From: Planctomycetota bacterium | GTDB lineage: Bacteria; Planctomycetota; B15-G4 | Reading direction: 5' to 3' | Assembly (NCBI GenBank): GCA_038212275.1 | Contig: JBBQUR010000020.1 | Span: 11,970 to 75,969 of the forward strand | Length of the DNA: 64,000 nucleotides | In this document: positions 27,520 through 64,000 of the stretch, in pieces | How the letters are laid out: the number at the start of each line of letters is the position of its first letter | Numbering within the stretch: position 1 is the stretch's first letter | The notes under the pieces: generated by a model | Database searches by the model: none | What the model saw: the letters and a program-made list of their open reading frames with translations, nothing else | What the model was told of the DNA's origin: nothing | Translations under genes and position numbers: made by a program

Positions 27520-27615
27520 GGCGCAAGTCTAACATGGCCAGGTCTGCATGCGCGCAGCGCCACCGGCGCACCGGCGCCTCTCCCGGCCTCCGCGCTTCCC
27601 GCGGAAGCGTCTCCG

Positions 27616-29025: not shown

Positions 29026-29030
29026 GGGTT

Positions 29031-29762: not shown

Positions 29763-30187
29763 TTCTTGTCCGTGTTGATGCCGACCTTGGCGATGCCGCT
29801 CTTGCGCGCCTCATCGAGGACGGCGACCACGTGCTTGAAGTCGGCGCCGGCATCGCCGTTGATCAGCACCTTTGGGTCCTTGTTCGTGGACTTCAGCGTC
29901 GCCAGCTTGATGGGAAGCTGCGCGAGCGTGATCTTCTCCTTGTTGTAGAAGACCTCGCCCTTCGCGTTGATGCTGAGCGTGACGGCCTTGTCCATCTCGG
30001 CCTGGGTTCCCAGGGACGCCGCCGTGCTCGCACCCGGAAGCGGCACCTGGATGCCCTGATTCTTCGTCATCGACAGCGACACCATCACGAAGGTCGCGAG
30101 CAGGAAGAAGATGATGTCGATGAGCGGGATGATCTCGAGCCGCGCCTTCTTGACGCCTCCCGCGCTGCCGCCTCCTCCGCCGTGCAT
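29759..30187 (-). CDS. exbD: Biopolymer transport protein ExbD/TolR
   Basis: IIPLIDIIFFLLATFVMVS single TM helix, and the periplasmic domain typical of ExbD. Confidence 0.8.
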   Translation of the reverse strand: MHGGGGGSAGGVKKARLEIIPLIDIIFFLLATFVMVSLSMTKNQGIQVPLPGASTAASLGTQAEMDKAVTLSINAKGEVFYNKEKITLAQLPIKLATLKSTNKDPKVLINGDAGADFKHVVAVLDEARKSGIAKVGINTDKK

Positions 30188-30188
30188 C

Positions 30189-32518: not shown

Positions 32519-32556
32519 CTCCCGTTTGCCTTTCTGGATCTCATGGCCGCGCGCTC

Positions 32557-35562: not shown

Positions 35563-35741
35563 GAGCGGACCGTTTTCTCCTTGGGGTGTCGAATCCGCGG
35601 GAGCGTAGGAATCGCTTTGCAGGACGAAGTGAACGCTGCGTGGGGATCGCGTGAAGGCGATTCTCGCGCGATCACACAGGAGACCGGGGCCTGTGAAGAT
35701 TCAGGGAAGATCCGACAGGCACGCGCGATGCCCGGCGGTCT

Positions 35742-37049: not shown

Positions 37050-37218
37050 CTGTCAGCCCCGTGGGGAGGAATCATCGCGTGGAGGTTCGAAGTGGTCAGT
37101 CTTGTCGAGGGCCGGCCCGTGCAGGCGCCGGCGCGATGCATCGCATCGGAGCACCCCGGGCGGCCTCCGCCCGGCCGAAGCCGGACGAAGACCGCCTGGA
37201 GCGAACGCGTGGCACTGC

Positions 37219-39096
37219 TTACGGCTGGCCCGTGGCCTTCATGCAGTTGGACAGCGAGACGCCCTTCACGGCGGCCGCGTCCTGGATGCCGTACTGGAAG
37301 TAGAGCGAGACACCCGTCAGGTTCGGAACCGTGGGCCACACGATCGGCAGCGCGAGCGCGCCCACCGAGTTGGTGCCCAGGTCCAGCTGGAGGATGATCG
37401 GAATCGTCTTCAGCGTGCCGCCCTTGAACGGAACCGGCGTGGAGGAGACCGACACCAGCAGCACCGCGAGGGCGTTGGCCTTGGCGTTGGTCAGCTCGAG
37501 CGAGTTCACGCTGTTCGGCGTGAGCGGGCCCGTGCCGGTGAGCGTCGGATACGCCCGGTCGGCCGGAAGCGCGCAACCTTCATCGGTCCACGGATTGTCC
37601 GTCGTGGTGAAGCCGAACGCCGCGGAGGCCGTCCAGTCGGAGAGCCAGCTCTGGCCGGGAGCGAACGCGCCACGGTACTTGGCTGCCGAGAAGAAGCCGT
37701 CGGCCGGAGCCGTCGCCACGCTCGTGAGCGCCGAGGCCGCCGGACGCGGATCGAGCGAGATCACGGGAAGCATGTTCTTGCCGCCCTTGACGACGAGCGG
37801 GCCGCGGGTGATCGCCGCGATCGGCTGATCAACCAGGGCAGAGCCGGCGTTCACGTTGTTGTTGGCCGGGTTGAAGACGCCGACAGTGGTCGCCTCCGTG
37901 TAGGCCGACGCGAACAGGTTGCGGAAGAAGACGCTGTCCTTGATCTCCGCGAGGTTGCCGTTGACCTGGGACTGGTTGAGGGCGGAGAACACCGCCGGGG
38001 TGGTCCACGTGTTCAGCCACGAGAGCGTGCCGTTGAAGCCGTAGCCGGCGCCGCCGTCGCCATCGACGTTGTCGAGCTGGACGAGACGCTCGCCCAGGTC
38101 CATCCAGATGCAGTTCCGGTACTGCACGCGGGCGTTGTCGCGCCACGCCGTGCCATGGTCACCGTCGATCGGCTGGCCGATGCAGGTGAAGTTGTAGATC
38201 GAGGCCGTGGTGACGGGGAGCCAGTCGGAGTTCTCCGCGCCGTCGGTCTCGAAGAGGTTGTCGCCGACACCCGAGCCCTGCGACGCGTTGGCCGCATAGC
38301 CCTGCACGAGCAGGCCGAACTGCGCCTTGCCGCGCCAGCCCTGGTCGATGTCGAAGCTGTCGTCACCGATGTTCCAGATGTTGACGTACTTCAGGTTGAC
38401 GGTGCCGCCCCAGATCTCGATGCCGTCATCGACGTTGTTCATGATGTCGATGTGGTGGATGTCCGTCTCGCGACCGACGCCGCCCAGCGAAAGGCCGTTG
38501 AGCTCGTTGTTCAGCGCGACGACCTTGCCGCCGTAGCGCAGCGACAGGTACTCGATCGTGCCGCTGTTGTCGTCGTCGTCACCGCCGCCGTAGAGCACGT
38601 TCGGGTCGCCGGGGAAGGCAGCCACGAGCCCCTCCATCGCGCCGATGTTGTTCGCATTGGGCGTCGGCACGTTGCCGAGGATGGCGTCCTCCGAGATGTA
38701 GCCCTTGCCCATGATGGTGAGGTTGCCCCACTCGTTGACCGCCTCGCGCCATGTGCCGGTCTTCGGGTTGCCGCCGACCCACGTCGCGACGTCGGCCTTG
38801 GAGGTCATGATCACCGGATTGTCCTGCGTGCCGAGCACGAAGATCTTCGCGCCGCGCGCCACGGCCAGGCTGCCGCCGATGTTGGTCGTGCTGGCGACGA
38901 TCGTGCCGGCCTCGATCGTCAGGGTCGCACCCGGGAGCACGTAGATCTGGGTCTGCAGGTTGTAGGTGTTGTTCGCTGTCCACGTGGTGGACACGGCGAT
39001 GTTGCTCGACACGAGAATATCAGCGGCCTGCGCCGAGCCGGTCAGGCCGACTCCCAGCGCGACGGCTGCTGCTGCTGCTTTGATGGAACTGCTCAC
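37219..39096 (-). CDS. Secreted right-handed beta-helix (pectate-lyase-fold-like) protein carrying the shared C-terminal domain
   Basis: GTG start preceded by a perfect GAGGAG Shine-Dalgarno with a 9-nt spacer. Signal peptide SSSIKAAAAAVALGVGLTGSAQA. Repetitive N/G/D-rich beta-helix-like turns (IDIMNNVDDGIEIWGGTVNLKYVNIWNIGDDSFDIDQG). The C-terminal about 95 aa carry the PFKGGTL...LYFQ...SN motif. Confidence 0.6.
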   Translation of the reverse strand: MSSSIKAAAAAVALGVGLTGSAQAADILVSSNIAVSTTWTANNTYNLQTQIYVLPGATLTIEAGTIVASTTNIGGSLAVARGAKIFVLGTQDNPVIMTSKADVATWVGGNPKTGTWREAVNEWGNLTIMGKGYISEDAILGNVPTPNANNIGAMEGLVAAFPGDPNVLYGGGDDDDNSGTIEYLSLRYGGKVVALNNELNGLSLGGVGRETDIHHIDIMNNVDDGIEIWGGTVNLKYVNIWNIGDDSFDIDQGWRGKAQFGLLVQGYAANASQGSGVGDNLFETDGAENSDWLPVTTASIYNFTCIGQPIDGDHGTAWRDNARVQYRNCIWMDLGERLVQLDNVDGDGGAGYGFNGTLSWLNTWTTPAVFSALNQSQVNGNLAEIKDSVFFRNLFASAYTEATTVGVFNPANNNVNAGSALVDQPIAAITRGPLVVKGGKNMLPVISLDPRPAASALTSVATAPADGFFSAAKYRGAFAPGQSWLSDWTASAAFGFTTTDNPWTDEGCALPADRAYPTLTGTGPLTPNSVNSLELTNAKANALAVLLVSVSSTPVPFKGGTLKTIPIILQLDLGTNSVGALALPIVWPTVPNLTGVSLYFQYGIQDAAAVKGVSLSNCMKATGQP

Positions 39097-39486
39097 GGGG
39101 TTGGACTCCTCAACAGGTTCGCTCCACGGATCGCGGAGGAGACACTCTCCTTCGCCTGATGGCTCCGTGTTCCGGCAAGCTAGAGACGCGATGTGGGCCG
39201 GACGTGAAGAGCCGGTGCGATTTCGCCCAATTCCGGCGGGCTGATCGCGAACAGGTCGGCCACGCACGACGCGACATCTGCAGCCTGGAGTGAATGCCGT
39301 CAGCCTGCGGCGAAGACGGCGTGAAGATCGCCACAAGACTGCAGAGGCCGCGTCACGCTTCGCCGCGAGAGCCGCCGCCGCCCTGCGTCACCGCCGGCGA
39401 GTCACGGAAGGCGCCCGGACGACCTCAGCGGCCTGTCGCCGTGCGGATCCTTCGGCAGGTGGCGTGCCGCGAGGGGCGCGCGGGGT

Positions 39487-41460: not shown

Positions 41461-43101
41461 TCACGGCATGAAGTGCGCCGACACCACGTTGGAGATGCCG
41501 ACGCCCTTGGGCTGCGCCGGATCCTGCACAATGACCTGCAGCAGCACATCGAAGGCGCCGAGACCTCCCGGCACGCCGGGGATCAGGACCTTTCCCTGCG
41601 CGTTGGTCGTGAGCGTGAACGCCGCGCCGAGGCCGAGATCCGGCACCAGCGTGCCGCCCTTGAAAGGGAGACTCGCTGCCTGCAGCGAGACGGCCAGCAA
41701 CGCGGGCCGGTTCGCCGGCGCGTTCTTCAGCAGCAGGTCGGCCTTGCCGCCCGGACCCAGCGTCGTGCCGCACAGGCTCAGCTTGCTGACGCCCGGGCCG
41801 CCGAAGCCGAGGTCCGCCTGGCAGACCAGCGGCGAGATCACCGACACGGTGCCTTGCTTGCCGTTCGCTTGGGTGGCGTAAGGCGCGCCGATGAGCATCT
41901 CCGGCCAGCCGTCACCGGTCACGTCGCCGAGGTGCGAGAGCGCGGTGCCGAAGGAATCGCCGAGTTGCCCGGTCATGTCCGGCAGCAGCGCAGCGCCGGT
42001 CGCGAGCGACAGCACCCGCGCAAAGCTCGGCTTGCCGGGCGTGAGCGGCGCGCTGCCGACGAGGAGGTCCGGCGTGCCGTCCTTGTCCACGTCGCCCGCC
42101 ACATCGAGGACCACGCCGAACTGGTCGCTCATCGCGTCGCCGGTGAAGACCCACGAGGCCGCGCCCGCCGGGCCACGGAAGACGCGCACCGACCCGCGTC
42201 CGCCGTTCTCGCTGTAGGCCCCGACGGCGATGTCGGCAAAGCCGTCGTGGTCGAAGTCGCCGAGGCCCGCGATCGCCGTGCCGAAGAGCGTGAGTTCCCC
42301 GGCGCCGTAGCGCGAGTAGAGCACCGAGCCGTCGACGCCCGAGCGCACTTCGACGCGCCCCGTCAGGTCACCCAGGCTCTGGTCCCCCGGTACGCCGACG
42401 ACGAAGTCCGGCTTGCCGTCGCCGTTCACGTCGCCCGCGGCTGCGACGCACCAGCCCATGCGCTGGTTGGCCGAGCCGTAGAAGGTGTTGAGCACGACAC
42501 CGGTGGCGCCGTCGATCAGCCGCGCGCGGCCCGCGAGCGGCACGAGCGCGCTGCTCTCGTAGTCGGGCGCACCGACGACGAAGTCCGGCCGGCCGTCGCC
42601 GGTCACGTCGCCCACACCGGCGATGGAGAAGCCGAAGCTCTCCTTCGACTTGGTGCCGTTCACCGTGTAGAGCTTGCTGCCGGTCAGTCCGGAGAAGACC
42701 TGCACCGAGCCCGTGTCCGTGCCGTTGACGTCCGTGCCGAGTGCGCTGATGGCGACGTCGCCGTGACCGTCGCCGTTCACGTCGCCAAGGCCGGCCACCG
42801 CGTAGCCGAACTGTTCGTTGACCGCCGCACCGTGCAGCGAGAGCAGCAGCGACCAGTCCTTGCCGGAGTAGACGTAGGCGCTGCCGCTGTTGGCGCCGAA
42901 GTCCGTGTCGCCGGCCTCGCCGACGAGGATGTCCGGCACGCCGTCGTGGTCGACGTCGCCAGCCGACGCGACGGCGCGTCCGAAGTGGCCCTGCGGCGCG
43001 GTGCCGCTGAAGACGTGCTGACTGAGCTGTGCGCGAGTCTCGGCGCAGAGCAGGGCGCTGCCGGCGAGCGCGAGGAGACCGGCGATGCGAAGCTGAATCA
43101 T
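41461..43101 (-). CDS. FG-GAP repeat (integrin-alpha-like beta-propeller) secreted protein with the shared C-terminal domain
   Basis: Signal peptide. Seven or more FG-GAP blades (GDVDHDGVPDILVG, GDVNGDGHGDVAIS, GDVTGDGRPDFVVG, GDVNGDGKPDFVVG, GDFDHDGFADIAVG, GDVDKDGTPDLLVG, GDVTGDGWPEMLIG). C-terminal CQADLGFGGPG...PFKGGTLVP...LLQVIVQDP...SNVV. Confidence 0.7.
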   Translation of the reverse strand: MIQLRIAGLLALAGSALLCAETRAQLSQHVFSGTAPQGHFGRAVASAGDVDHDGVPDILVGEAGDTDFGANSGSAYVYSGKDWSLLLSLHGAAVNEQFGYAVAGLGDVNGDGHGDVAISALGTDVNGTDTGSVQVFSGLTGSKLYTVNGTKSKESFGFSIAGVGDVTGDGRPDFVVGAPDYESSALVPLAGRARLIDGATGVVLNTFYGSANQRMGWCVAAAGDVNGDGKPDFVVGVPGDQSLGDLTGRVEVRSGVDGSVLYSRYGAGELTLFGTAIAGLGDFDHDGFADIAVGAYSENGGRGSVRVFRGPAGAASWVFTGDAMSDQFGVVLDVAGDVDKDGTPDLLVGSAPLTPGKPSFARVLSLATGAALLPDMTGQLGDSFGTALSHLGDVTGDGWPEMLIGAPYATQANGKQGTVSVISPLVCQADLGFGGPGVSKLSLCGTTLGPGGKADLLLKNAPANRPALLAVSLQAASLPFKGGTLVPDLGLGAAFTLTTNAQGKVLIPGVPGGLGAFDVLLQVIVQDPAQPKGVGISNVVSAHFMP

Positions 43102-43172
43102 GGAAGTGTTCCGTGTGAAGTGGAGGGTCCTGTCGCCGCGCCGCGCGCGGCCTGCAGCACGCGCCTGCGCAC

Positions 43173-43205
43173 TGAGGTCCTTCAGATCCGGATCGCGCGC
43201 GAAAA
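43173..43205. promoter_or_regulatory. Conserved palindrome-containing element (CAGATCCGGATCGCGCGCGAAAAGGTCTCAGCC) upstream of the FG-GAP gene at 41461..43101
   Basis: A near-identical 33-nt copy lies at 45011..45043, upstream of the paralog. It contains the perfect palindrome GATCCGGATC and the self-complementary CGCGCGCG. Confidence 0.4.
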
Positions 43206-43285
43206 GGTCTCAGCCGAGCGCGCGCTGTGCCCATGAAAGCGCCCGCCCGGGAATCGATCCCGGGCGGGCGTCACGTCGGCTGCCC

Positions 43286-44929
43286 TCAGTTCAGGAAGTG
43301 CGCGAGCACCACGTTGGAGAGCGCGAAGCCCTTGGCCTGCGCCGGATCCTGGATCACCACCTGCAGGAAGACGTCGAAGAGTCCGAGCCCGCCGGGAATG
43401 CCGACCAGGTGCATCGCACCGTGCGTGTCGGTCGCGAGCACGAACGTCACGCCGCTGGCAAGGTTCGGCACGATCACTCCGCCCTTGAAGGCCTTGGCGG
43501 ACGCCTGCAGCGACGCCGCCAGCAGCGCGGGCCTGCTCACCGCCGCGCCCTGCAGCACGATGTCCGCCTGGCCCGCCGCGCCGAGCGGCGCGCCGCACAT
43601 CGAGAGGTGCGCGAGACCCGGGCCGCCGGAGCCGAGGTCGGCCTGGCACCAGAGCGGCGAGTAAACCGTGACCTGGCCCTGCGTGGCGCCGACGATGGCG
43701 TACGGCGCGCCGACGAGCACGTCCGGCCAGCCGTCGCCGGTGACGTCGCCCGCGGCGGCGAGGGCGCTGCCGAAGCCGGAGATGTTCGGGCCTGTCGGAC
43801 TGCCGTATAGCGGCAGGCCCGTCGCGCCGGAGAGCACGCGCACGTAAGGGAGCTTGCCGCCGTTCGGCGGGAAGGTGCCGACGAGCAGGTCGGCGTGACC
43901 GTCCTTGTCCACGTCACCGGCTGCGGAGACGGCCGTGCCGAAGCGGTCGTCAGGCGCGTCGCCGACAAAGATCCACGAGGCCGCGCCGCTCGGGCCGCGG
44001 TACACGTGCGCCGCGCCGGCAGCGCCGGACTCGCCCGAGGCGCCGACCAGCAGGTCCGCGAAGCCGTCGCCATCCACGTCGCCGACACCGTCCAGCGCCG
44101 TGCCGAAGAAGGACGCGGCGTGCGGGCCGAAGCGCTGGTAGAGCAGCGCGCCGCCGTTGCCGGAGCGCACGTCGATGCGGCCGGTTGCGGCGCCGAGAAT
44201 GGCCTCGCCGGGCGCCCCCATCGCGACGTCGTCGCGGCCGTCGCCGTCCACGTCGCCGGCGCCTGCCACCACGCTGCCCAGCCGGTCGCCTTTCTTGCCG
44301 ACGAAGGTGAGCAGCGTCGCGCCCGTGTTGCCCGAGACGACGATCACGCGCCCCGCATCCGGCGTGAGCCCGAGCACGCCGTCGTAACCGGGCGCGCCGA
44401 TGACCATGTCCGGGATGCCGTCGAGGTTCACGTCGCCGGCCGCGGCGATGGAGAGGCCGAAGTTCAAGCCGGCTGCGCTGCCGGTCAGCGCATAGATCAA
44501 CACGCCGGTCTTGCCGGAGTAGACGCGCACCGCGCCGGCCTGGGCGGCGACGCTGCTGTCGTAGGGCGCGGCCACGGCGAGGTCCGCGAAGCCGTCGCCG
44601 TTCACGTCACCCGGGCCTGCCACGGAGCGGCCGAACTGCTCGAGCGTCGTGCCGCCGTGCAGCACGCGCAGCAGCGACCAGTCCTTGCCGGAGTAGACGA
44701 AGGCGCTGCCGGAGGCGTAGCCGTTGACGCTGTCCGCGGGCGCGCCGAGCAGGATGTCGTCGATGCCGTCGGCATTCACGTCGTGCGCGGCCGCCACGGC
44801 CTGGCCGATCTGCGCCGATTGCGTGATCGACGTGAAGACGTGCTGGGAGATCTGCGCGTGAACCGGCGCGCAGACCAGCGCGCTGCCGGCGAGCGCGAGG
44901 AAACCGGCCGTGATGTGAGATTGATGCAT
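43286..44929 (-). CDS. FG-GAP repeat secreted protein, a paralog of 41461..43101, with the shared C-terminal domain
   Basis: Same architecture, with a near-identical N-terminus (LALAGSAL.CA...AQ.SQHVF) and C-terminus (CQADLGSGGPG...AFKGGVIVP...FLQVVIQDPAQAKG...SNVVLAHFLN). AAGGAA Shine-Dalgarno 8 nt upstream of the ATG. Confidence 0.7.
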   Translation of the reverse strand: MHQSHITAGFLALAGSALVCAPVHAQISQHVFTSITQSAQIGQAVAAAHDVNADGIDDILLGAPADSVNGYASGSAFVYSGKDWSLLRVLHGGTTLEQFGRSVAGPGDVNGDGFADLAVAAPYDSSVAAQAGAVRVYSGKTGVLIYALTGSAAGLNFGLSIAAAGDVNLDGIPDMVIGAPGYDGVLGLTPDAGRVIVVSGNTGATLLTFVGKKGDRLGSVVAGAGDVDGDGRDDVAMGAPGEAILGAATGRIDVRSGNGGALLYQRFGPHAASFFGTALDGVGDVDGDGFADLLVGASGESGAAGAAHVYRGPSGAASWIFVGDAPDDRFGTAVSAAGDVDKDGHADLLVGTFPPNGGKLPYVRVLSGATGLPLYGSPTGPNISGFGSALAAAGDVTGDGWPDVLVGAPYAIVGATQGQVTVYSPLWCQADLGSGGPGLAHLSMCGAPLGAAGQADIVLQGAAVSRPALLAASLQASAKAFKGGVIVPNLASGVTFVLATDTHGAMHLVGIPGGLGLFDVFLQVVIQDPAQAKGFALSNVVLAHFLN

Positions 44930-45010
44930 GACGATGTTCCTTGCGTGGAGGGACCGACGGAAGCCGCACGATGTGCGACGGGGAGCACGCTGCTGCGCGC
45001 CGTGGCCCTA

Positions 45011-50525: not shown

Positions 50526-50715
50526 CGCCGCAGGATGAAGGCGGCAGCGCGCTCTGGCAAGTCCGGCCTCTGCGGAGGAGTTCGTGCCTTCCTCCGCGCG
50601 GGTGGGAGAACTTCCGGGCAGCCCCCCGGAAAGCATGACGCGACGTTCACGGCCCCGCGGCAGGGCGACTTCTATCCTCCGGGCGTCCTCCAAGACTCCT
50701 CTCCGGATCAATCCC

Positions 50716-51735
50716 ATGAACACGATGGTCATGTCCCTGGACACGTTCAACCGAGGCCGCTTGCGCACCGCCGCGTGCGCGTTGCTGCTGCTCGCCGCCT
50801 TCGGGCCGCGCGTCCACGCCCAGGTGGTCTTCGCCAAGGCGCCGAGCCCGGCCGGCGGCGTGAATGCCTCCTCGTGGGTGCCTCCGGACGGCAGCGACTC
50901 CGACATGTACTCGTGGGACGACTTCACGCTGGCCACGACGCAGACCATCACGGAGGTGCGCTGGCGCGGCGGCTACGCGCTCGGCGCGACCTACGGCAAG
51001 GCCACGGACTTCCGCGTGTCCTTCTTCGCGTCCAACGTGACCGGCTTCGAGCCGAAGATCGTCGCCATCCCCGAGAACGAATCCCAGGAGCAGGCGCTGA
51101 TCAACGTCCACACGAACAACAATGCGGGCGAGAGCTTCGCGGGCGTCTTCGGCGGCGTGGCGATGTACGACTACCACTTCACGCTGCCCGTCCCGTTCGT
51201 CGCGCAGGCCGGCGTGAAGTACTGGTTCCGCGTCGTGTGCGGGCAGCCCGTCTACCCGGACTGGGGCATGGCCACGAGCGATCCCGCGGGCAGCCACTTC
51301 CGCTACAGCACCGGCAGCACCATGTTCCACAACTACTCGCACGACCTGGCGTTCTCGCTGCATGCGCGCTGGGCCGACCTCGGGGGCGCCATCGCCGGCA
51401 CGTCCGGCGTGCCGGCACTTGGCGGCGCCGGAAGCCTGACGAGCGGCTCGGCCGACACGCTCACGTTGACCTCGGCGAGGCCCTCGTCCGCCGTGACGCT
51501 GCTCTTCGGCGTGTCGAAACTCGGCGCGCCCTTCAAGGGCGGCACGCTGGTGCCTGATCCGTTCCTGCTGCTCGCCTTGACCAGCGACGCGCAAGGCCAC
51601 GTGTCGCTGCCCTTCACGCTGCCGGCGGGCCTGCCCCCCGGAACGTCGCTCTACTTCCAGGCCTGGCTGCCCGACCCGGCCGCGGTGAAGGGGCTTGCCG
51701 CGAGCAATGGCCTCGCCGGCACGACGCCCGGATGA
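50716..51735 (+). CDS. Secreted hypothetical protein (339 aa) with the shared C-terminal domain
   Basis: Signal peptide MNTMVMSLDTFNRGRLRTAACALLLLAAFGPRVHAQ and an N-terminal domain of unknown function. C-terminal ...APFKGGTLVPDPFLLLALTSDAQGHVSLPFTLPAGLPPGTSLYFQAWLPDPAAVKGLAASNGLAGTTPG. Confidence 0.55.
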   Translation: MNTMVMSLDTFNRGRLRTAACALLLLAAFGPRVHAQVVFAKAPSPAGGVNASSWVPPDGSDSDMYSWDDFTLATTQTITEVRWRGGYALGATYGKATDFRVSFFASNVTGFEPKIVAIPENESQEQALINVHTNNNAGESFAGVFGGVAMYDYHFTLPVPFVAQAGVKYWFRVVCGQPVYPDWGMATSDPAGSHFRYSTGSTMFHNYSHDLAFSLHARWADLGGAIAGTSGVPALGGAGSLTSGSADTLTLTSARPSSAVTLLFGVSKLGAPFKGGTLVPDPFLLLALTSDAQGHVSLPFTLPAGLPPGTSLYFQAWLPDPAAVKGLAASNGLAGTTPG

Positions 51736-51738: not shown

Positions 51739-51812
51739 CCGTCGCGGCCATCCGTCGCGGCCATCCGTCGCGGCCATCCGTCGCGGTCACCGTCGCGGCC
51801 ATCCGTCGCGGT
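51739..51812. repeat. 13-nt tandem repeat (CCGTCGCGGCCAT x about 5.5) in the convergent intergenic region
   Basis: Seen in the sequence immediately after the stop of 50716..51735. The unit length is not a multiple of 3. Confidence 0.7.
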
Positions 51813-56393: not shown

Positions 56394-56480
56394 GCCGGGC
56401 CGCGTGCGCAGGTCGGGCCGCGTGCGCAGGCCGGGCCGCGTGCGCAGGCGCCGGGCCGCGTGTGCGGGATGCGGGCCGCG
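56394..56480. repeat. About 18-nt tandem repeat ((C/T)CGGGCCGCGTGCGCAGG x4-5) directly abutting the start codon of the DAACS symporter gene
   Basis: Seen in the sequence. The array runs from -1 to about -90 relative to the ATG. Confidence 0.7.
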
Positions 56481-56497
56481 CGCGCACGGCTCTGCGG

Positions 56498-59029
56498 CTA
56501 CGGCAGGAAGCTGAGCTTCACCGCATTGGTGATGGCGACGCTCTGCGGCAACGAAGGATCGAAGACGCGTGCCTGCAGGTACACGTCCGCCGGCCCCATG
56601 CCGCCGGGAATCAGGATCTGGATCAGGCCCGACGGCGGCGCCACCAGACCGATGTCCAGGAACGAGGGCACGGTGACCAGCGTGCCGCCCTTGAAGGGCT
56701 GCGGGTTGAGCGAGAAGGAGGCCGAGAGCAGCATCGGCTTGCCGGGAGGCAGGTGGGCCAGCGTCATCGTCGCGTACTGGCAGCTTGCCAGCGGCTGACC
56801 GCACACCGCGAGCGTCGATGCACCGGGGCCCTGGAAGCCGAGGTCCGTCTGGCACGTGACGCAGGCGTCTCCGAAGCCGTCGCCGTCGAGATCGGCCTGA
56901 TCCGGATTGGGAAAGTCGGGACAGTTGTCCCAGTCGTCGGGCCAGCCGTCGCCGTCGGCATCCAGCTGACTGCGGCGCACGTCGGAGAGTCGCACGTCGT
57001 CGAAGGTCCAGCCCCTCGCGCGGTGCTGGTTGCTGACGTCGCTGCCGAGGCGGAAGACCGGGCTCACGGAGCTCACGCGGAAGGCGGGCCCGCGCAGCGT
57101 GAAGGCATTGGCGGACTTGCCGGCATTGCCCGTGCGCAGCTCGAGCAGACCCTGGTTCGGCGCCCACTCCGCCTGCACGTGACGGAAGCCGTTCACGTTG
57201 TCCTCGGCGTTCGCGTCGGGAAACGGGGCGACGACCTCGTGACGCCCGTTGAGGCGATCGACCACCACGAAGTGGAGCTGTCCGCCTTCCACGTACAGAT
57301 CCATGCTGTTGCTGGTGTCGTGCACCGTGCCGTAGGTGGTCGTGCCACCCACCACCGCCGCGAACACGCCTGCACCTTCGCCGAAGGGACTGTTCATCGT
57401 GGGCTGCGTGGTCACGAGCTGGCTGGGAAGCTGCTCGCCCCCGGGACCTGTGCCCGCCAGCGAGCGCCCGTCCGCGTCCAGGTAGAAGATCGCGGACTGC
57501 GTCGAGGTGCACGAGCGATAGAAGATGTCCGAGAGGCCGTCGCCGTTCAGGTCGCCCAGCGTCATGCTCACGGCGCTTTCCACCTTGTAGGTCAGCGTCT
57601 CGGGCGTCAGCAGGTCGCTGAAGCCCATCGGATTGAGCGGGCCCAGCAGCACGGTGGAGGCAGGCGCGTTCACCAGTCCCTGGCGCCAGTTGGCCACGGC
57701 CACGTCCACGAAGCCGTCGTTGTTGACGTCCTTCACGGCGGAGACGGTGAACGGGCGCGGCGTCTTGATGATGCCGTCGGGCTCCGGATTGAAGGTCCCG
57801 TCGCCGTTGTTGAGGTGGATCGCGACGCGGCCGAACAGCGAGCCGCTGCCGTCGTCGTACAGCGGTTGAGTGAGCACGGAATCGAGGAACCCGTCGCAAT
57901 TCACGTCGCCGAAGGAGGCGCCCAGCACCTGATTGCTGCGATCCGAGGACAGGAGCGACAGGTTCTCGAAGGTGTAGCCGGTGGGCCCGATCCTGCCGAT
58001 GAGTACGCGGCTCGCGGGCTCGCCGAAGCTGCCGTAGAGCACGTCCAGCACGTCATCGCCGTTCACGTCGCCGGCGGCGATGGCCTCCGCGCCCGCGATG
58101 ATGTTCGCGTACGGGAAGTCCATGATCGTGAAGTTGCCGGAGCCGTCGTTGGCGAAGCCCACCACGGCCGGCGTGTTCTGCGCGTACGAGGCGACCACGA
58201 TGTCGAGGTCGCCGTCCTTGTCGAAGTCCGCGAGCACGAGTCCCTGCGGAAGGTCCATCTCGAGGGCCATCTGCGGCTGGTAGATGCTGCCCTTCTTGAA
58301 GGGGCCGCGGAAAATCTGCACCTCGCCGGGAGTGGGCGTGAGCGGGTTGGCCAGCGTGCTGCCCTGGTGCATCGACACGACGAGGTCGAGGTAGCCGTCG
58401 CCGTCCACGTCACCGATCTCGAGGCCGCGCGGCACCTGCGACTTGAAGCGCGCCGGCGCCGAAAAATCGAGGCCGTTGCCGCTGTTGAAGTAGATGCGTG
58501 AGAGCGAGCCGGGCGTGACGCCAAAGGGCTCGCCCACGATGAGGTCGTTGAAGGCGTCGCCATCCAGCGACTTGGTGCCCTGCAGGCTGAAGAGATGCTG
58601 GCGCGCCGAGGTCTCCGGCCCCGGCTTGACCCACATCTCGAGCGTGCCGTGGTTCAGGTCCAGAGCGCCGGTGCTGTACATGCCCACCGCGGCAGCCGCC
58701 GGCATGACGACGCAGCCAGTGTTGAAGACGCCGCCGCCGACGGGCAGCAGGCCGCTCTTCACCACGTTGGTGGTGCCCACCGCAGTGAGCATGGCGGGTG
58801 TTCCCTCGAACTGGCCGAGGACCACCGTGTGGCTGTCGAGTCCACCGATCGGCGCGTGTGACAGAGGCAGCCCGCTCGGCGGGCACTGGGCGCTGGCGGC
58901 GCAGGCCACCAGCGACAGGGTCGTCGTGCACGCGATCAGCGTGCCGCGGATCGGAGTGCCTGGGCGCGCGCCGGCGTCGGGCGTCGGGGTCTGCTGCAAC
59001 GGCATCGGGGCGTCGGCTCGGGGCTTCAT
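56498..59029 (-). CDS. Large secreted protein: FG-GAP repeats, a ConA/LamG-like region, thrombospondin type-3-like Ca-binding repeats, and the shared C-terminal domain
   Basis: Signal peptide. FG-GAP blades (GDVDGDGYLDLVVS, ADFDKDGDLDIVVA, GDVNGDDVLDVLYG, GDVNCDGFLDSVL, KDVNNDGFVDVAVA, GDLNGDGLSDIFY). TSP3-like repeat DADGDGWPDDWDNCPDFPNPDQADLDGDGFGDAC. C-terminal CQTDLGFQGPG...PFKGGTLVTVP...YLQARVFDP...TNAV. The start is M39 or M47 of the ORF. Confidence 0.7.
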   Translation of the reverse strand: MKPRADAPMPLQQTPTPDAGARPGTPIRGTLIACTTTLSLVACAASAQCPPSGLPLSHAPIGGLDSHTVVLGQFEGTPAMLTAVGTTNVVKSGLLPVGGGVFNTGCVVMPAAAAVGMYSTGALDLNHGTLEMWVKPGPETSARQHLFSLQGTKSLDGDAFNDLIVGEPFGVTPGSLSRIYFNSGNGLDFSAPARFKSQVPRGLEIGDVDGDGYLDLVVSMHQGSTLANPLTPTPGEVQIFRGPFKKGSIYQPQMALEMDLPQGLVLADFDKDGDLDIVVASYAQNTPAVVGFANDGSGNFTIMDFPYANIIAGAEAIAAGDVNGDDVLDVLYGSFGEPASRVLIGRIGPTGYTFENLSLLSSDRSNQVLGASFGDVNCDGFLDSVLTQPLYDDGSGSLFGRVAIHLNNGDGTFNPEPDGIIKTPRPFTVSAVKDVNNDGFVDVAVANWRQGLVNAPASTVLLGPLNPMGFSDLLTPETLTYKVESAVSMTLGDLNGDGLSDIFYRSCTSTQSAIFYLDADGRSLAGTGPGGEQLPSQLVTTQPTMNSPFGEGAGVFAAVVGGTTTYGTVHDTSNSMDLYVEGGQLHFVVVDRLNGRHEVVAPFPDANAEDNVNGFRHVQAEWAPNQGLLELRTGNAGKSANAFTLRGPAFRVSSVSPVFRLGSDVSNQHRARGWTFDDVRLSDVRRSQLDADGDGWPDDWDNCPDFPNPDQADLDGDGFGDACVTCQTDLGFQGPGASTLAVCGQPLASCQYATMTLAHLPPGKPMLLSASFSLNPQPFKGGTLVTVPSFLDIGLVAPPSGLIQILIPGGMGPADVYLQARVFDPSLPQSVAITNAVKLSFLP

Positions 59030-59223
59030 ATCGTCGGACGGGTGGCCCTGAAGTCTACCCGCAAGGCACGATCGGCGTGGGGCTTTCGCGGGTCGGAGGG
59101 CACCCCCGGAACTCCTTGTTCCCTCATCGGTGCACGCTCCCATCAGCCTTGAATGCCTGAGGGTCGACGGCAGGAGACCGCCCCCCCTTGGACCGGGATG
59201 GTCCCGCTCCTGTCACGCCGCGC

Positions 59224-59300
59224 ACGGCCCGACCACGCACGGGCGGGCCGCGCACGGGCGGGCCGCACACCGGCGGGCCGCACACCGGCGGGCCGCGCTC
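59224..59300. repeat. 15-nt tandem repeat (C[GA]CAC[GC]GGCGGGCCG x5) in the divergent promoter region upstream of the CPXCG/Rieske genes
   Basis: Seen in the sequence: cacgggcgggccg cgcacgggcgggccg cacaccggcgggccg cacaccggcgggccg cgctcgggcaggccg. Followed by TAGAAT 9 nt before the ATG. Confidence 0.7.
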
Positions 59301-59333
59301 GGGCAGGCCGCGGGGTGGCATAGAATCCGCGCC

Positions 59334-59522
59334 ATGGACGACGACGCGAGCTACCGGTGCGCCTTCTGCGGCGAGGAGATCGTGGTGTCGATCGACCTCA
59401 GCGCGGGCAACGAGCAGGAGTACGTCGAGGACTGTCCCGTCTGCTGCCGGCCGCACGTGATCCGCGTGACCATCGAGCGCGACGGCTCCGTCAGCGTGCA
59501 CGCCGAGGCAGAGACCGAGTGA
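59334..59522 (+). CDS. CPXCG-motif cysteine-rich small protein (zinc ribbon, 62 aa)
   Basis: MDDDASYRCAFCGEEIVVSIDLSAGNEQEYVEDCPVCCRPHVI: C-x2-C ... C-P-x-C-C. Its stop overlaps the GTG start of the downstream Rieske gene (GTGA). Confidence 0.55.
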   Translation: MDDDASYRCAFCGEEIVVSIDLSAGNEQEYVEDCPVCCRPHVIRVTIERDGSVSVHAEAETE

Positions 59523-60796
59523 GCGCGGTGCCTTCCGGCGCGCCCTTCGACCTGCGCACGCTGGCCATCGACCCGGACATCCGCCGCGCCCGCACCCTGC
59601 CGGCGGCCTTCTACATCGACCCCGCGGCCTTCGCGTCCAGCCGGCAGTCCGTCTTCGCGCGGAGCTGGCAGCTCGTCGGCGACGCGGCCTCGCTCGCCCG
59701 GCCCGGCGCCTGCGTCCCCGCCACGCTCCTCCCCGGCCTGCTCGATGAGCCGCTGCTGCTCACCCGGCCGGCGGACGGCGCCGACGCGGGGCGCGCGGGC
59801 GGCGACTCGCGCATGGCCACCGACGTCCGCTTCACCAACGACGCCCGCTTCGCCGGTGACCAGCGCTTCGCCGCCCATGGCATCGCCTGCCTCTCCAACG
59901 TGTGCACGCATCGCGGCATGCTGCTCTGCGACGCGCCGCGCACCGGGACGCAGCTCCAGTGCCGCTACCACGGGCGGCGCTTCGCGCTCGACGGCCGCCT
60001 GCTTTCCGCGCCGGAGTTCGACGGCGCGGAAGACTTCCCGTCGCCGCGCGACGATCTGCCGCGCGTGGCGCTCGCGCGCTGGGGCCCGCTGCTCTTCGCC
60101 AGTCTTGACCCCGCCGTGCCCTTCGCGGAGTGGATCGCGCCGCTGCAGGCGCGCCTCGGCTGGCTGCCGCTCGACAGTGCGCGCCTGCACCCCGAGCGTT
60201 CGCGCGACTACCCCGTGGCCGCGCACTGGGCGCTCTACTGCGACAACTTCCTCGAGGGCTTCCACATCCCGTACGTGCACCCGGCCCTGGCCGGCGCGCT
60301 GGACTGCGGCAGCTACCGCACGGAGCTATTCGCGCACGCCAATCTGCAGGTGGGCATCGCGCAAGCGAGGGCAGCGAACGCGCTCGCTGCCGTCGTGTCA
60401 CGGGACGCGCGCCTCGGAGACGGCGACGTCCCCGTCTTCGACCTGCCGCGCGAGTCGCCGGACGCCGGCCAGGCCGTCGCCGGCTACTACTTCTGGCTGT
60501 TCCCGAACACGATGGTGAACGCCTACCCGTGGGGGCTGTCGCTCAACATCGTGAAGCCCGTCGCGCCGGACCGCTGCGTGGTGAGCTTCCTCAGCTACGT
60601 GTGGGACGAGAGCAAGCTGGACCGCGGCGCCGGCGCCGGTCTCGACCGCGTGGAAGCCGAGGACGAGAGCGTGGTGGAAGCCGTGCAGCGCGGCCTGCGC
60701 AGCCGGCTGTATCGCGGCGGGCGCTACTCGCCGTCGCGCGAGGCCTGCGTGCACCACTTCCACCGGATGCTCGTGGAGAGCCTGCGCGGCGGGTGA
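59519..60796 (+). CDS. Rieske [2Fe-2S] non-heme iron oxygenase, alpha-subunit-like
   Basis: Rieske motif CLSNVCTHRGMLLC-x17-CRYHGRRF (C-x-H ... C-x2-H). Mononuclear Fe motif DNFLEGFHIPYVH (D/E-x3-H-x4-H). GTG start. Confidence 0.7.
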   Translation: MSAVPSGAPFDLRTLAIDPDIRRARTLPAAFYIDPAAFASSRQSVFARSWQLVGDAASLARPGACVPATLLPGLLDEPLLLTRPADGADAGRAGGDSRMATDVRFTNDARFAGDQRFAAHGIACLSNVCTHRGMLLCDAPRTGTQLQCRYHGRRFALDGRLLSAPEFDGAEDFPSPRDDLPRVALARWGPLLFASLDPAVPFAEWIAPLQARLGWLPLDSARLHPERSRDYPVAAHWALYCDNFLEGFHIPYVHPALAGALDCGSYRTELFAHANLQVGIAQARAANALAAVVSRDARLGDGDVPVFDLPRESPDAGQAVAGYYFWLFPNTMVNAYPWGLSLNIVKPVAPDRCVVSFLSYVWDESKLDRGAGAGLDRVEAEDESVVEAVQRGLRSRLYRGGRYSPSREACVHHFHRMLVESLRGG

Positions 60797-60844: not shown

Positions 60845-63172
60845 GTGCGATCCGACCTGCCCGCAAGCGACCTCCGGCGCCCGACCGCTGTCGCGGCGCT
60901 GCTCGCCCTCATGGTGGTCAGCCTGCGACTCGGGCTGCCCGACCTCCGGCACGGCCTGCCCTTCGTCTTCCACTCGGACTTCGTGCAGATCGAGCAGGCG
61001 GCGCAGCTGCTGCGACAGGGCTGGTTCACGAACGACAGCATCTATCCGCTGCCGCTCGTGTGGCTGTACGCGGGCGCGGCCTGGCTGGCGCACGTGCTCG
61101 GTGCACTCGGCGGCGCCGCGGGCGAGGGCATGGACGCCTTCGCGCAGCGCTTCACCGACCCGGCCGTGCACCACCCGCTCGGGCGCTTCGTCGACGTGGC
61201 CTGCGCTGCGCTGCTCGTGCCGGCCACGTACCGGCTCGCCCGCGTGCGCTTTCCGCGCGGCGTCGCGCTGCTCGCGGCCGCGGTCATCGCCGTGGACCCG
61301 GTGCTCCTGCTCACGGCGCGGCAGGTGCGGCCGCATGCGCCGGCGGTGCTGTGCCTGGCGCTGGCGGCGCCCTCGGTGCTGGCCCTTGCGCGCCGCGGCG
61401 CCGGCCCGCGGCAGGGCCTGCTCGCCGGAGCGCTCGTCGGCATGAGCGCCGCCGTGTTCCAGGTGGCGTCGCTGCAGGGCGTGGCGCTGCTGCTCATCGT
61501 GGCGGCGTGCGTGCGTCCCGCGCGGCGCGCGCTGGCGACGGCGTGCACGGCGCTGGCCGGCATGGCGGGCAGCGCGTGGCTGGTGAGCGTGCTCGCGGGC
61601 GCACCGGCTTCCGTGCGCGCGCCCTCGGGCGCAAGCCTCGACGACGCGGCGCACTCGGCCGGCTTCCTCATGCGCATGCTGGACTGGGGAATGACCGGGC
61701 CCTTCCAGCAGGCCGGAAAAGCCTGGTTGCTGGCAGAGCCAGCTCTGTGTCTCGGCGTCGCGGGCGCCGTGCTGCTGGCGTTGCGCACCGCGCGCCGCCG
61801 GCGGGACGCGCTCGCAGCACCCGCACCGCCGGGCGCGTCGGCCCCCGGCCTGGTGGATCTGCTGCTCTACGGAGCGTGTCCGGCCATCGTGCTCGCCTGC
61901 ACGGCCACGATGCTCGGGGCGCACGTGCGCTACGTCGTCGCGGCCCTGCCGTTTCTTGCGACGCTCGCTGCGGCGGCGTGTCTCTCGGCGCGACCCGCCC
62001 TTCCGCGCATCGCCGCGGTGGCGCTGCTGCTCGCGGTGCCGCTGGCCACGACGCTGCGGACGCGCGCGCTGCTGCACACGGCGGACTCGCGCTTCGTGCT
62101 GGATGCAGCTCTGCAGTCGATCGGGGCGGGCGAGGCGCCGCTCGTCATCGCGTTGCAGGACACGCTGGTCCTGGACCGCAGCGCGCTGCCGCGCGGCGTG
62201 CTCGAGTTTCCGCCGCACGGCGACCTGTCGCGCTGGGACGAGGCGAAGTTCGTGCCGCGCGCCGAGCTCCGGGCCTGCGGCGCCGCGGTCTACGCACGCG
62301 TGCCCGGTGCGCGCTGGGCCACCGGGCCGCTCGACGCGGCCTCGATGCAGCGGCTCGGCTTCCAGCTGTGGGGCACGCTGGGCGACGCGCCGACGAGCCG
62401 CCTGTACCTGCCCGACGTCCCCGATGCGCTGGTCATCGACGCGTGGTCCGCGAGCCGCACGGGCCCGCCCATCGAGCTTTGGATCGCGAACGGTCCCGCC
62501 GGAGACCTGGCGCGCTCGCGACTCGCGACGGCGGACCTCGCCGCGGCGGCCGCATCCGATGCCGACGCCGCCGTGGCCGCCACGCTCGCGCGGATCGCGA
62601 GCCAGCGCGCGGCACGCTCGGGTGCAGGTGCGGGTGCAGGTGCGGGTGCAGGTGCGGGTGCAGGTGCAGGTGCAAGTGCGGGTGCAGGTGCAGGTGCAAG
62701 TGCGGGAGCGGGTGCGGGCCGGGGCGCAGCGAGCGGCGCGCAAGGCTCCGGCATCGTCGATCCGGCGCTGCTCGCGAAGCTGCTGGCGCTGCCGACGGAC
62801 CGCTGGCAGGCGACGGGAGGCGCTCTGCCGGGTGCGGCGCACGCGCCCACGCTCTCGGCGCGCGGCACGATGCGCCACGACGAGCCCGTGCTGCTGCTGG
62901 TGGACGGCGCGCCGCCCGGCAGCACGTGCCGGCTCGTGCTCGGCGCGCGCGAACTGCGCGCCCCGTTTCGCGGCGGCACGCTCGTCCCCGCGCCGGACCT
63001 GCTCCTGGACGGCCTGATCGTGGGCGACGACGGTCGACTCGCCCTCGGCGCCCTGTGGCCGCACAGTTCGCCGGCAGGCCTCACCCTCTGCGCCCAGGTC
63101 TGGGTGCAGGATCCCAGCGGGCCGCACGGCTACTCGGCCACGAACGCCGTCGTCGGCACGAGCCCCGACTGA
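60845..63172 (+). CDS. Polytopic membrane protein, GT-C fold-like (ArnT/PMT-family-like glycosyltransferase), with an extracytoplasmic C-terminal extension containing a Gly-Ala repeat and the shared C-terminal domain
   Basis: At least 10 predicted TM helices. The first loop LRLGLPDLRHGLPFVFHSDFVQIEQAAQLLRQGWF resembles the D-E loop of GT39/GT83 enzymes (LRLW.LG.P..LVFDEVY). C-terminal ...APFRGGTLVPAPDLLLDGLIVGDDGRLALGALWPHSSPAGLTLCAQVWVQDPSGPHGYSATNAVVGTSPD. Confidence 0.45.
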   Translation: MRSDLPASDLRRPTAVAALLALMVVSLRLGLPDLRHGLPFVFHSDFVQIEQAAQLLRQGWFTNDSIYPLPLVWLYAGAAWLAHVLGALGGAAGEGMDAFAQRFTDPAVHHPLGRFVDVACAALLVPATYRLARVRFPRGVALLAAAVIAVDPVLLLTARQVRPHAPAVLCLALAAPSVLALARRGAGPRQGLLAGALVGMSAAVFQVASLQGVALLLIVAACVRPARRALATACTALAGMAGSAWLVSVLAGAPASVRAPSGASLDDAAHSAGFLMRMLDWGMTGPFQQAGKAWLLAEPALCLGVAGAVLLALRTARRRRDALAAPAPPGASAPGLVDLLLYGACPAIVLACTATMLGAHVRYVVAALPFLATLAAAACLSARPALPRIAAVALLLAVPLATTLRTRALLHTADSRFVLDAALQSIGAGEAPLVIALQDTLVLDRSALPRGVLEFPPHGDLSRWDEAKFVPRAELRACGAAVYARVPGARWATGPLDAASMQRLGFQLWGTLGDAPTSRLYLPDVPDALVIDAWSASRTGPPIELWIANGPAGDLARSRLATADLAAAAASDADAAVAATLARIASQRAARSGAGAGAGAGAGAGAGAGASAGAGAGASAGAGAGRGAASGAQGSGIVDPALLAKLLALPTDRWQATGGALPGAAHAPTLSARGTMRHDEPVLLLVDGAPPGSTCRLVLGARELRAPFRGGTLVPAPDLLLDGLIVGDDGRLALGALWPHSSPAGLTLCAQVWVQDPSGPHGYSATNAVVGTSPD
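62618..62720. repeat. Coding hexanucleotide microsatellite ((GGTGCR)n, about 17 copies) encoding a (Gly-Ala)n linker
   Basis: Seen in the sequence. Protein SGAGAGAGAGAGAGAGASAGAGAGASAGAGAGRG. Confidence 0.8.
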
Positions 63173-63202: not shown

Positions 63203-64000
63203 TTACTTCTTGAAGCCCGCCGAGGACGTCGGGCCCGTCGCGAGCAGCTCCTTCAAGCTGCCGATCGAGCCCAGCACGGCCGCGCTCTCGTAGGGCAGGA
63301 AGACGGTCTTCTGGCCGCCGCTGCCGGCGGCGATTTCGCGCATCATCTTGAGATACTCCAGCGCAATCAGGTACTGCGCGGGGTTGGTGCCGCTGGCGGA
63401 CAGCGCCGCCGACACCTTCTCGATGGCGCCGGCCTCGCCGGTGGCCTTGAGGATGAGGCGCTGGCGCTCGCCTTCCGCTTCCGCAATGGCCGCGTCGCGC
63501 AGGCCCTCGGCGCGCAGCACGCGCGCGGCCTTCTCGCCCTCGGCCTCCAGCACGACGGCGCGACGGTCGCGCTCGGCCTTCATCTGCTTCTCCATCGCCA
63601 CCTGGATTTCCGGCGGCGGCGAGATGTCCTGCAGCTCGACGCGATTGATCTTCACGCCCCACTTGTCGGAGGCGTCGTCGAGCACGGCGCGCATCTTGGT
63701 GTTGATCTCGTCGCGGTTGGAGAGCGCCTTGTCGAGGTCGAGCTCGCCGATGATGTTGCGCAGCGTGGTCTGCGCCAGTTTCTCGATGGCCATCGGCAGG
63801 TTGCTGACCTCGTAGGCGGCGCGCGTCGGGTCCGTGATCTGGCTGAAGAGCAGCCCGTTGATCTGGATGACCACGTTGTCGCGCGTGATGACGCGCTGCT
63901 CGGGGAAGTCCATCACGGACTCGCGCAGGTCGATGCGCTCGGTGAAGCGCGCGACATTGACGGCGCGGCCGCTGGCGGTGATCGGCGTCATCCACGCCAC
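63203..64000 (-). CDS. SPFH/band-7 (stomatin/HflK/C-like) protein, C-terminal part (gene continues beyond the window end)
   Basis: RDNVVIQINGLLFSQITDP..., NLPMAIEKLAQTTLRNIIGELDLDKALSNRDEIN and a coiled-coil tail are typical of SPFH proteins. No start lies within the window. Confidence 0.7.
   Translation of the reverse strand: MAWMTPITASGRAVNVARFTERIDLRESVMDFPEQRVITRDNVVIQINGLLFSQITDPTRAAYEVSNLPMAIEKLAQTTLRNIIGELDLDKALSNRDEINTKMRAVLDDASDKWGVKINRVELQDISPPPEIQVAMEKQMKAERDRRAVVLEAEGEKAARVLRAEGLRDAAIAEAEGERQRLILKATGEAGAIEKVSAALSASGTNPAQYLIALEYLKMMREIAAGSGGQKTVFLPYESAAVLGSIGSLKELLATGPTSSAGFKK

Follow-up and report, generated by a model that had tools for sequence, protein, structure and literature searches.

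Why does a polytopic membrane enzyme end in the same domain as several secreted proteins encoded beside it? The question is raised by a gene at 60845..63172 (+ strand) of a stretch of 64,000 nucleotides from a Planctomycetota bacterium (GTDB lineage Bacteria; Planctomycetota; B15-G4; assembly GCA_038212275.1, contig JBBQUR010000020.1, forward-strand positions 11,970 to 75,969), which we term the window and whose numbering is used throughout. The gene is a single intact open reading frame (ORF) for a 775-residue protein, which begins with GTG, the first in-frame start past a stop codon at 60800, and ends with the stop codon at 63170-63172; the GC content of its third codon positions (GC3) is 0.88, like that of the other real genes of this ~70% GC window. 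We found that the N-terminal part of the protein is a GT-C glycosyltransferase of the PMT_2 (PMT/ArnT-like) clan and that its C-terminal domain (CTD) is, by profile comparison, homologous to a domain that closes secreted proteins of the window. We put the probability at about one half that the protein is a periplasm-facing transferase of polyprenyl-phosphate-linked sugars, for which the CTD would serve as an accessory recognition or localisation module.

A GT-C membrane module with a predicted periplasmic active site

The transmembrane (TM) module occupies residues 1-404 (60845..62056), as delimited by the helices of an AF2 model, Foldseek comparisons and positive-inside counts in 8 orthologs. 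Pfam PMT_2 (PF13231) matches residues 114-248 (61184..61588) with an E-value of 4e-9 and 37.3 bits, against a gathering cut-off of 26.1. The orthologs carry precomputed PF13231/PF02366 matches, and one of them (P0007) has been named 'phospholipid carrier-dependent glycosyltransferase [Planctomycetota bacterium]' by the NCBI pipeline. A Foldseek comparison of the AF2 model of the protein (13 sequences; pLDDT 73.8, pTM 0.68) with the PDB returned GT-C enzymes at all ranks from 1 to 36 (best E 6.8e-6; target-normalised TM-score up to 0.56), including ALG9/ALG12/ALG3, AglB/STT3/PglB, Pmt1/Pmt4, ArnT, AftA/AftD/EmbA-C and GPI-MT-I. At the sequence level, a profile of the N-terminal half of the orthologs has yeast Pmt1 as its sole match among PDB sequences (E 2.2e-4; query residues 16-243 aligned with Pmt1 50-263), and in this alignment Asp45 of the window protein falls on Asp77 of Pmt1, which lies in the first luminal loop and is important for catalysis (PMC10214176). 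Asp45 (codon 60977-60979) is part of the segment LPFVFHSDFVQIEQAAQ (residues 38-54), which lies within a first periplasmic loop, EL1 (residues 31-105, 60935..61159), with three surface helices. It is invariant among all orthologs that include the N-terminus and still at least 90% conserved when distant PMT_2 proteins join the alignment, and both its conservation and its match in Pmt1 mark it as the putative catalytic residue.

None of the NCBIfam models, ArnT included, matches the protein at E<=1, and neither does Pfam MIR or PMT_4TMC at the same threshold, so the protein belongs to the PMT_2 clan without being a strict member of GT39 or GT83. With the yeast GT39 enzymes Pmt1, Pmt2 and Pmt4 it shares the GT-C fold, eleven TM helices, an N-in/C-out orientation and the catalytic Asp of the first loop (D45 for D77), the Pmt1 profile match itself being marginal; unlike them, it is bacterial, has only 48 residues in place of MIR in the loop between TM7 and TM8 and continues into a C-terminal alpha/beta domain, a linker and the CTD. 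With ArnT and the PMT_2-clan GT83 enzymes it has in common the PMT_2 match, a predicted periplasmic active site and a C-terminal periplasmic domain (ArnT fold match, E 7e-4), whereas ArnT has 13 TM helices. As a representative of a known superfamily the enzyme part is unremarkable, though divergent, and its family membership suggests a polyprenyl-phosphate-linked sugar as donor. A phmmer search of the full protein against PDB sequences matched only artificial Gly-Ser/Gly-Ala linkers, which were discarded.

We propose eleven TM helices from the AF2 model (residues 12-30, 106-128, 139-158, 164-182, 192-204, 207-222, 231-250, 299-313, 336-356, 364-381 and 386-404). With the N-terminus inside and the C-terminus outside, Lys and Arg make up 16 of the 53 residues in cytoplasmic loops and 9 of the 137 in periplasmic ones, a bias that recurs in all 8 orthologs (Arg/Lys ~30% in cytoplasmic versus ~7% in periplasmic loops). 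Since this bias fits the eleven-helix N-in/C-out model, the active-site loop EL1 and residues 405-775 are predicted to be extracytoplasmic, which agrees with the presence of the CTD elsewhere on Sec-exported proteins. A further hydrophobic helix (residues 69-88) lies inside the first periplasmic loop by the Pmt1 alignment and is not membrane-spanning; were it counted as a TM helix, all the Arg-rich loops would become periplasmic. By its low pLDDT and its charge counts, the TM7-TM8 connection (residues 251-298, 61595..61738) is a long flexible periplasmic loop with two short helices, its pLDDT dropping below 50 at residues 253-276 and 281-284. The polar residues that are invariant among orthologs (D45, D105, H109, D151, Q160, R162, H164, R258, H360, R362, Y363 and D414) are grouped on the periplasmic face of the module.

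A preliminary description of this DNA, made from its letters alone, had anticipated much of this picture: a multi-TM protein with an ArnT/PMT-like first loop, a GT-C-like N-terminal part that might be a transferase, and an extracytoplasmic C-terminal region. The segment with the invariant Asp45, the PMT_2 score, the exclusively GT-C top 36 of the fold comparison and the Pmt1 Asp77 alignment bear out the first two claims. The charge bias in 8 orthologs and the occurrence of the CTD on signal-peptide-bearing proteins favour the third over a cytoplasmic placement.

The CTD is shared with secreted proteins of the window

The CTD comprises residues 654-775 (62804..63169) and is predicted by AF2 to be an all-beta, immunoglobulin (Ig)-like sandwich; modelled alone (22 sequences), it reaches a pLDDT of 97.3 and a pTM of 0.90. 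A hidden Markov model (HMM) built without the window protein, from the window ORF 50539-51735 and seven database CTDs, recognises it over its full length (HMM positions 1-121) with an E-value of 2e-33 and 111 bits. BLASTP with the last 125 residues of the protein retrieves five other window ORFs, the strongest match (4e-23) being to a secreted DUF7901 protein (ORF 50539-51735, CTD at 51370..51729, + strand). The remaining four lie on the - strand: a secreted 722-residue protein without a Pfam match (ORF 37219-39387, CTD at 37225..37590; 2e-11), an FG-GAP/thrombospondin-type-3 protein, so classified by Pfam (ORF 56498-59143, CTD at 56504..56851; 3e-7), and, with weaker matches, two secreted FG-GAP propellers (ORF 41461-43209, CTD at 41464..41820; 9e-7; and ORF 43286-45007, CTD at 43292..43645; 1e-3). 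Family HMMs match these five CTDs with E-values of 1e-8 to 7e-49 and detect no further copy in the window.

The five partner genes are grouped within 22 kb upstream of the GT-C-CTD gene (37219-59143), and all five products begin with sequences that look by eye like signal peptides. The sharing of the CTD with secreted proteins had been noted in the preliminary description and is upheld by both BLASTP and the HMM built without the window protein; its view of the partners as beta-propellers holds for the three FG-GAP proteins and not for the DUF7901 protein or the one without a Pfam match. The three FG-GAP proteins have CTDs of one subtype, with a C-Q-x-D-L-G start, a second conserved Cys that may possibly form a disulfide, and an end in hydrophobic-x-P or -N rather than T-T-P. 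The FG-GAP/thrombospondin-type-3 protein has a possible lipoprotein signal (..TTLSLVAC..) instead of a plain signal peptide.

A large family of tag-like C-terminal domains in Planctomycetota

An index-free profile search of 1.84 billion cluster representatives (clusters at 50% identity) recovered 6,544 CTD clusters at E<=1e-3 and 4,393 at E<=1e-10. Word-indexed searches were insensitive, yielding 6 matches with the full protein, 11 with the N-terminal profile and 14 with the CTD profile. In all but a few of the 150 CTD matches listed, the match runs to the last few residues of the protein, and among 148 new matches 120 proteins end in Pro and 47 in Thr-Thr-Pro. Pfam and NCBIfam searches of 84 CTD proteins found no family common to them, and the domain is therefore unannotated. 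Their passengers are diverse: FG-GAP (20 of 84), DUF7948, PKD, beta-helix, CBM96, metallophosphatase, PHB depolymerase, several of Haft's 'choice-of-anchor' domains and one C25 peptidase. The CTD profile had no significant match among PDB sequences, and Foldseek against the PDB returned only generic FN3/Ig-like folds (best E 5.8e-3, TM-score <=0.56), among them weak matches to accessory domains of glycoside hydrolases (dextranase, CITase).

A scan of one genome per GTDB species for APFKGG[TV][LV]V identified 180 confirmed CTD loci. The best 80 of these come from ~12 metagenome-assembled genomes (MAGs), all but two labelled Planctomycetota or Phycisphaerales, and several of these MAGs hold more than 10 CTD copies each. 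Three loci (L039, L052 and L059) come from MAGs labelled Gammaproteobacteria or Pseudohongiellaceae, which may reflect mis-binned Planctomycetota contigs or horizontal transfer. Among 103 other CTD ORFs of the scanned loci, 80 stop precisely where the profile does, and none has more than two hydrophobic segments or is polytopic. In these cargo proteins the CTD directly follows the passenger, and no conserved cleavage motif or linker upstream of it was found beyond the junction [PGS][GSD][PA]-W-[TS]-D-L-G. Family size, strictly C-terminal position, the Pro ending, many copies per genome and diverse passengers together are what one would expect of a C-terminal tag dedicated to sorting or anchoring. 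Literature searches for a Planctomycetota C-terminal sorting domain brought up no relevant description.

One member of the family recalls the handling of such tags in a known system. The database protein P0089 combines a signal peptide, Propeptide_C25, Peptidase_C25 and then the CTD; it is a gingipain/PorU-like C25 cysteine peptidase with a weak NCBIfam match (E 5e-13) to PorU, the sortase of the type IX secretion system (T9SS). Its homologues are fused to or adjoin CTDs in at least four MAGs of Planctomycetota type (L067:940-2991, L071:3682-5646, L080:3726-5609 and L052:1-666). PorU also carries a CTD, and the parallel is suggestive of the CTD-bearing C25 peptidase as a candidate tag-processing enzyme.

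The enzyme-borne CTD and the linker that precedes it

We aligned 251 cargo CTDs and 9 CTDs of the GT-C family to one HMM and compared them position by position. The enzyme CTDs keep most of the core positions (W1, G5, P15, L17, G21, A36, P62, P64, G77, W85, P86, P90, Q98, D103, G109, S113, N114 and P121) and share a signature of their own (R20, E27, L30, L32 and G35). The window protein ends one residue past the conserved Pro (..TSPD), and all its orthologs likewise have one extra D, E or R. It also departs from the cargo format of a signal peptide and a soluble passenger, being an eleven-helix membrane protein instead. On this comparison, the enzyme copy of the CTD is conserved but specialised, and its retention with its own signature in orthologs that are only 39-57% identical indicates purifying selection on a specific function.

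Between the membrane module and the CTD lies a periplasmic middle domain of predicted alpha/beta structure (residues 405-591, 62057..62617), delimited by the alignment, invariant columns and DSSP. It is conserved in the family, with the motifs EFPP, LPDxPD and GPxIExW, and has no Pfam match and no significant match in a profile search of PDB sequences. A Gly/Ala/Ser linker follows (residues 592-636, 62618..62752), a low-complexity stretch of 45 residues that begins with SGAGAG and ends with GSG and whose longest unbroken Gly/Ala/Ser run is 32 residues (594-625: AGAGAGAGAGAGAGAGASAGAGAGASAGAGAG). The preliminary description of this linker as ~35 residues of pure (GA)n was roughly right in length (32-45 residues) and wrong as to purity, two Ser being present. 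The DNA of its core is GGTGCA repeated ~16 times in frame (62619-62718); Tandem Repeats Finder (TRF) reports 15.8 copies at 62621-62715 with a score of 127 for period 6, and a score of 158 for period 12 at 62619-62718, which is far beyond chance. GGT encodes 13 of the 19 linker glycines as opposed to 5 of the 61 in the remainder of the gene, a skew that points to an expansion generated by slippage rather than to ordinary coding sequence. The linker has a pLDDT of 25-37 in the AF2 model, and the (GA)n expansion is restricted to the window protein, the orthologs having no repeat and a variable linker. It is a disordered tether that arose by recent in-frame microsatellite expansion, and we estimate that its ~45 residues would measure roughly 15 nm when fully stretched.

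Many other short tandem repeats with periods of 8-18 nucleotides occur in the window, apparently mostly between genes (e.g., 51739-51811, 56394-56486, 59217-59312, 17883-17953, 19242-19282, 45276-45329 and 54834-54910). Several are found between CTD genes or immediately downstream of one, and the linker repeat has the highest score among them.

In most orthologs the position of the linker is taken by a brief Gly/Ala-rich segment and, after it, V-x-[LIV]-D-[LIV]-D-G-D-G-x-x-E (seen in the alignment and also at L085:2531-6064). This motif resembles the calcium loop of FG-GAP repeats; neither the window protein nor P0001, its closest relative, has kept it. The motif hints at capture of the CTD from an FG-GAP-CTD gene, of which it would be a possible relic. 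Immediately before the CTD stands a helix conserved among orthologs, IVDPALLAKLLALPTDR (residues 637-653, 62753..62803), in which LLALP is invariant and of which residues 640-647 are helical in the AF2 model.

A rare but conserved fusion

The GT-C-CTD fusion has about ten known members, namely the window protein, P0001-P0007 and three loci added by a metagenome scan (L085-L087), and its architecture is common to 8 full-length or nearly full-length orthologs. Every ortholog keeps the CTD at 39-57% identity (L087 is cut off by a contig end), and the gene order described below is conserved, which together argue that the fusion is real and selected. A tandem repeat such as the linker is a typical place for assembly or slippage errors, and a frameshift or an assembly chimera could in principle have fused two unrelated genes. 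The GC3 is uniform, however, and the same N-to-C architecture occurs, without the repeat, in ~10 independent metagenomic orthologs, by which an artefactual origin is effectively refuted.

Predicted function and competing explanations

We posit an inner-membrane GT-C enzyme with a periplasm-facing active site around Asp45 of the first periplasmic loop, which, by analogy with every characterised GT-C enzyme, would draw on a polyprenyl-phosphate carrier for the sugar that it transfers to an acceptor at the periplasmic face. Four parts make up the C-terminal region, which is predicted to be periplasmic: the alpha/beta domain, the Gly-Ala tether, the short helix and a divergent Ig-like CTD of ~120 residues. 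The CTD would be an accessory module for recognition or localisation, the counterpart of TPR, MIR or CBM in other GT-C enzymes; by binding a partner of the cargo CTDs, or the cargo CTDs themselves, it would place the transferase in the display pathway of the CTD proteins. In GT-C enzymes, C-terminal luminal modules are known to serve client recognition, and the client domains for which TMTC and TMEM260 are specific are Ig-like beta-sandwiches (PMC10214176). The preliminary description had gone on to propose a glycosylation or anchoring system for the CTD proteins; the GT-C identity, the extracytoplasmic C-terminus and the CTD homology on which it drew have stood, and the link of the enzyme to glycosylation or anchoring of the CTD proteins is plausible.

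Several observations weigh against the proposed coupling. The fusion family is rare compared with a CTD family of 6,544 clusters. A search with two strict peptide patterns, by which diverged orthologs could be missed, found no fusion in GTDB representative genomes; because the GTDB genomes with more than 10 CTD genes yielded none, the fusion is not a universal component of a CTD system. In the annotated neighbourhoods we found no genomic tie of the enzyme to the CTD proteins. Glycan-biosynthesis genes, which the preliminary description had thought to look for in the genomic context, are absent from the annotated parts of the window (which lie outside 21980-37052) and from the ortholog neighbourhoods, the genes that flank the window gene encoding Zn-ribbon, Rieske oxygenase and Band_7/NfeD proteins. 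Of the 251 cargo CTDs, 94% have the Lys of PFKGG, as opposed to one of the 9 enzyme CTDs, the window protein having Arg, and the enzyme CTDs also lack the conserved G13 and G19; with this signature Lys and two glycines missing, the enzyme CTD may not bind the same partner. Finally, the topology is predicted from charge bias and homology.

Other explanations differ chiefly in what the CTD would do for the enzyme. The protein could be a client-specific protein O-glycosyltransferase that glycosylates Ser/Thr in the Ig-like CTD of each exported protein upon its emergence into the periplasm, the CTD of the enzyme pairing or competing with that of the client, on the model of TMTC1-4 with cadherin EC domains and TMEM260 with IPT domains. 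We regard this as possible though not likely. Its closest solved sequence relative is a protein O-mannosyltransferase, Pmt1, and PMT-clan enzymes devoted to beta-sandwich domains exist (PMC10214176). TMTC1-4 (GT105) and TMEM260 (GT117) likewise join a PMT-clan GT-C module to a C-terminal accessory domain in the lumen that is believed to recruit their clients (PMC10214176), although theirs is TPR and that of the window protein a copy of the beta-sandwich tag itself. The cargo CTDs do offer a conserved Ser113 and very often a Thr-Thr-Pro end; the C-Q-x-D-L-G subtype, with the three FG-GAP proteins of the window, lacks that end, however, CTD-rich genomes appear without the enzyme, and the PMT_2 clan also holds enzymes that modify lipids and glycans, such as ArnT. 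The acceptor could also be an envelope polysaccharide that the enzyme would extend or decorate while its CTD grips it, much as EmbC and AftD use their C-terminal CBMs, the CTDs of the secreted proteins being lectin- or CBM-like anchors to the same surface polysaccharide. We entertain this only tentatively. The mycobacterial EmbA/B/C and AftD, which join a GT-C module to a C-terminal extracytoplasmic beta-sandwich (CBM) that holds the glycan acceptor, are among the fold matches, the CTD is an Ig/FN3-like sandwich with its weak matches to glycoside-hydrolase accessory domains, and the choice-of-anchor passengers point to anchoring. The matches to the mycobacterial enzymes are weak, however (E 8e-3 to 3e-2), these being much larger proteins, and the CTD has generic fold matches (none better than 5.8e-3) and no specific similarity to CBMs; moreover, binding modules are not usually confined to the exact C-terminus, where the CTD stands in 80 of 103 cases, and the missing signature Lys speaks against identical ligand binding by the enzyme copy. 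The CTD might, alternatively, have no part in any such pathway, if a GT-C gene had gained the 3' end of an FG-GAP-CTD gene by recombination and retained it as a structural domain or spacer. The DxDGDGxxE motif just upstream of the CTD in most orthologs would fit such an event, as would the abundance of CTD genes, the occurrence, in several genomes, of FG-GAP-CTD genes close to the locus, the lost signature Lys and the rarity of the fusion; yet most core residues and the distinct signature have been kept at 39-57% identity, and we consider this explanation improbable.

The tag-like features of the CTD also invite comparison with T9SS, in which an Ig-like sandwich, always at the C-terminus, likewise marks numerous secreted proteins of a genome and a C25-family peptidase is itself tagged. 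The P0089 protein with its weak PorU match extends the likeness. That the CTD is a T9SS CTD, and the window protein a T9SS-related component, is nevertheless very improbable: TIGR04183/Por_Secre_tail matches neither the window protein nor the FG-GAP-CTD protein of the window and is not common to the 84 CTD proteins, no T9SS CTD structure is among the Foldseek matches, the domain has ~120 residues and follows its cargo passengers without a linker, and its hosts are Planctomycetota, to our knowledge not a phylum known for T9SS. By analogy with the T9SS CTD, PorU and A-LPS, the CTD could instead be the recognition tag of an undescribed pathway that sorts and anchors surface proteins in Phycisphaerae-related Planctomycetota, in which the C25 peptidase and the GT-C enzyme would have linked roles. 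The CTD-bearing C25 peptidase (P0089 family) would then process the tag; in the sub-lineage of the window, the GT-C-CTD enzyme would either synthesise or transfer the glycan that serves for cargo attachment or glycosylate the tag itself, and, with the Lys missing from its CTD, it could dock to the machinery yet escape processing. As a complete scheme this is doubtful.

Our preferred reading, the transferase with the CTD as its recognition or localisation module, gives the locus its wider interest. The acceptor of a GT-C enzyme is usually assigned from its extracytoplasmic accessory domain; in the window protein this is a copy of the tag that thousands of uncharacterised secreted proteins carry in uncultured Planctomycetota. 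The fusion of a GT-C enzyme to a lineage-specific cargo tag is new, and the tag family is undescribed in the resources searched. If the coupling is true, the gene offers an experimental entry to the function of the tag, be it sorting, anchoring or glycosylation, and to surface decoration in diderm Planctomycetota; even without it, the CTD family merits a curated model and phylogenetic profiling.

Genomic neighbourhood

The gene follows, on the same strand, those for a 60-residue Zn_ribbon_21 protein and a Rieske/Ring_hydroxyl_A oxygenase, while genes for Band_7, NfeD and LplA converge on it from downstream. This order, consisting of Zn_ribbon_21, Rieske oxygenase, optionally MauE/DoxX, and the GT-C-CTD gene, with Band_7, NfeD and LplA facing them on the opposite strand (window 59130-60796 and 63203-64000; L001 and L003), is kept between orthologs that are 41-47% identical. 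The Zn-ribbon and Rieske ORFs of the window overlap if each is read from its first start codon, and their 5' ends probably reach too far upstream. A scan for promoters and terminators around the GT-C-CTD gene found nothing. A second GT-C enzyme, with PMT_2, TMTC_DUF1736 and TPR in 1033 residues, is encoded 5 kb downstream of the ortholog at two loci (L001:17655-20756 and L002:8605-11706), which indicates that the lineage has PMT-clan enzymes with different periplasmic accessory modules.

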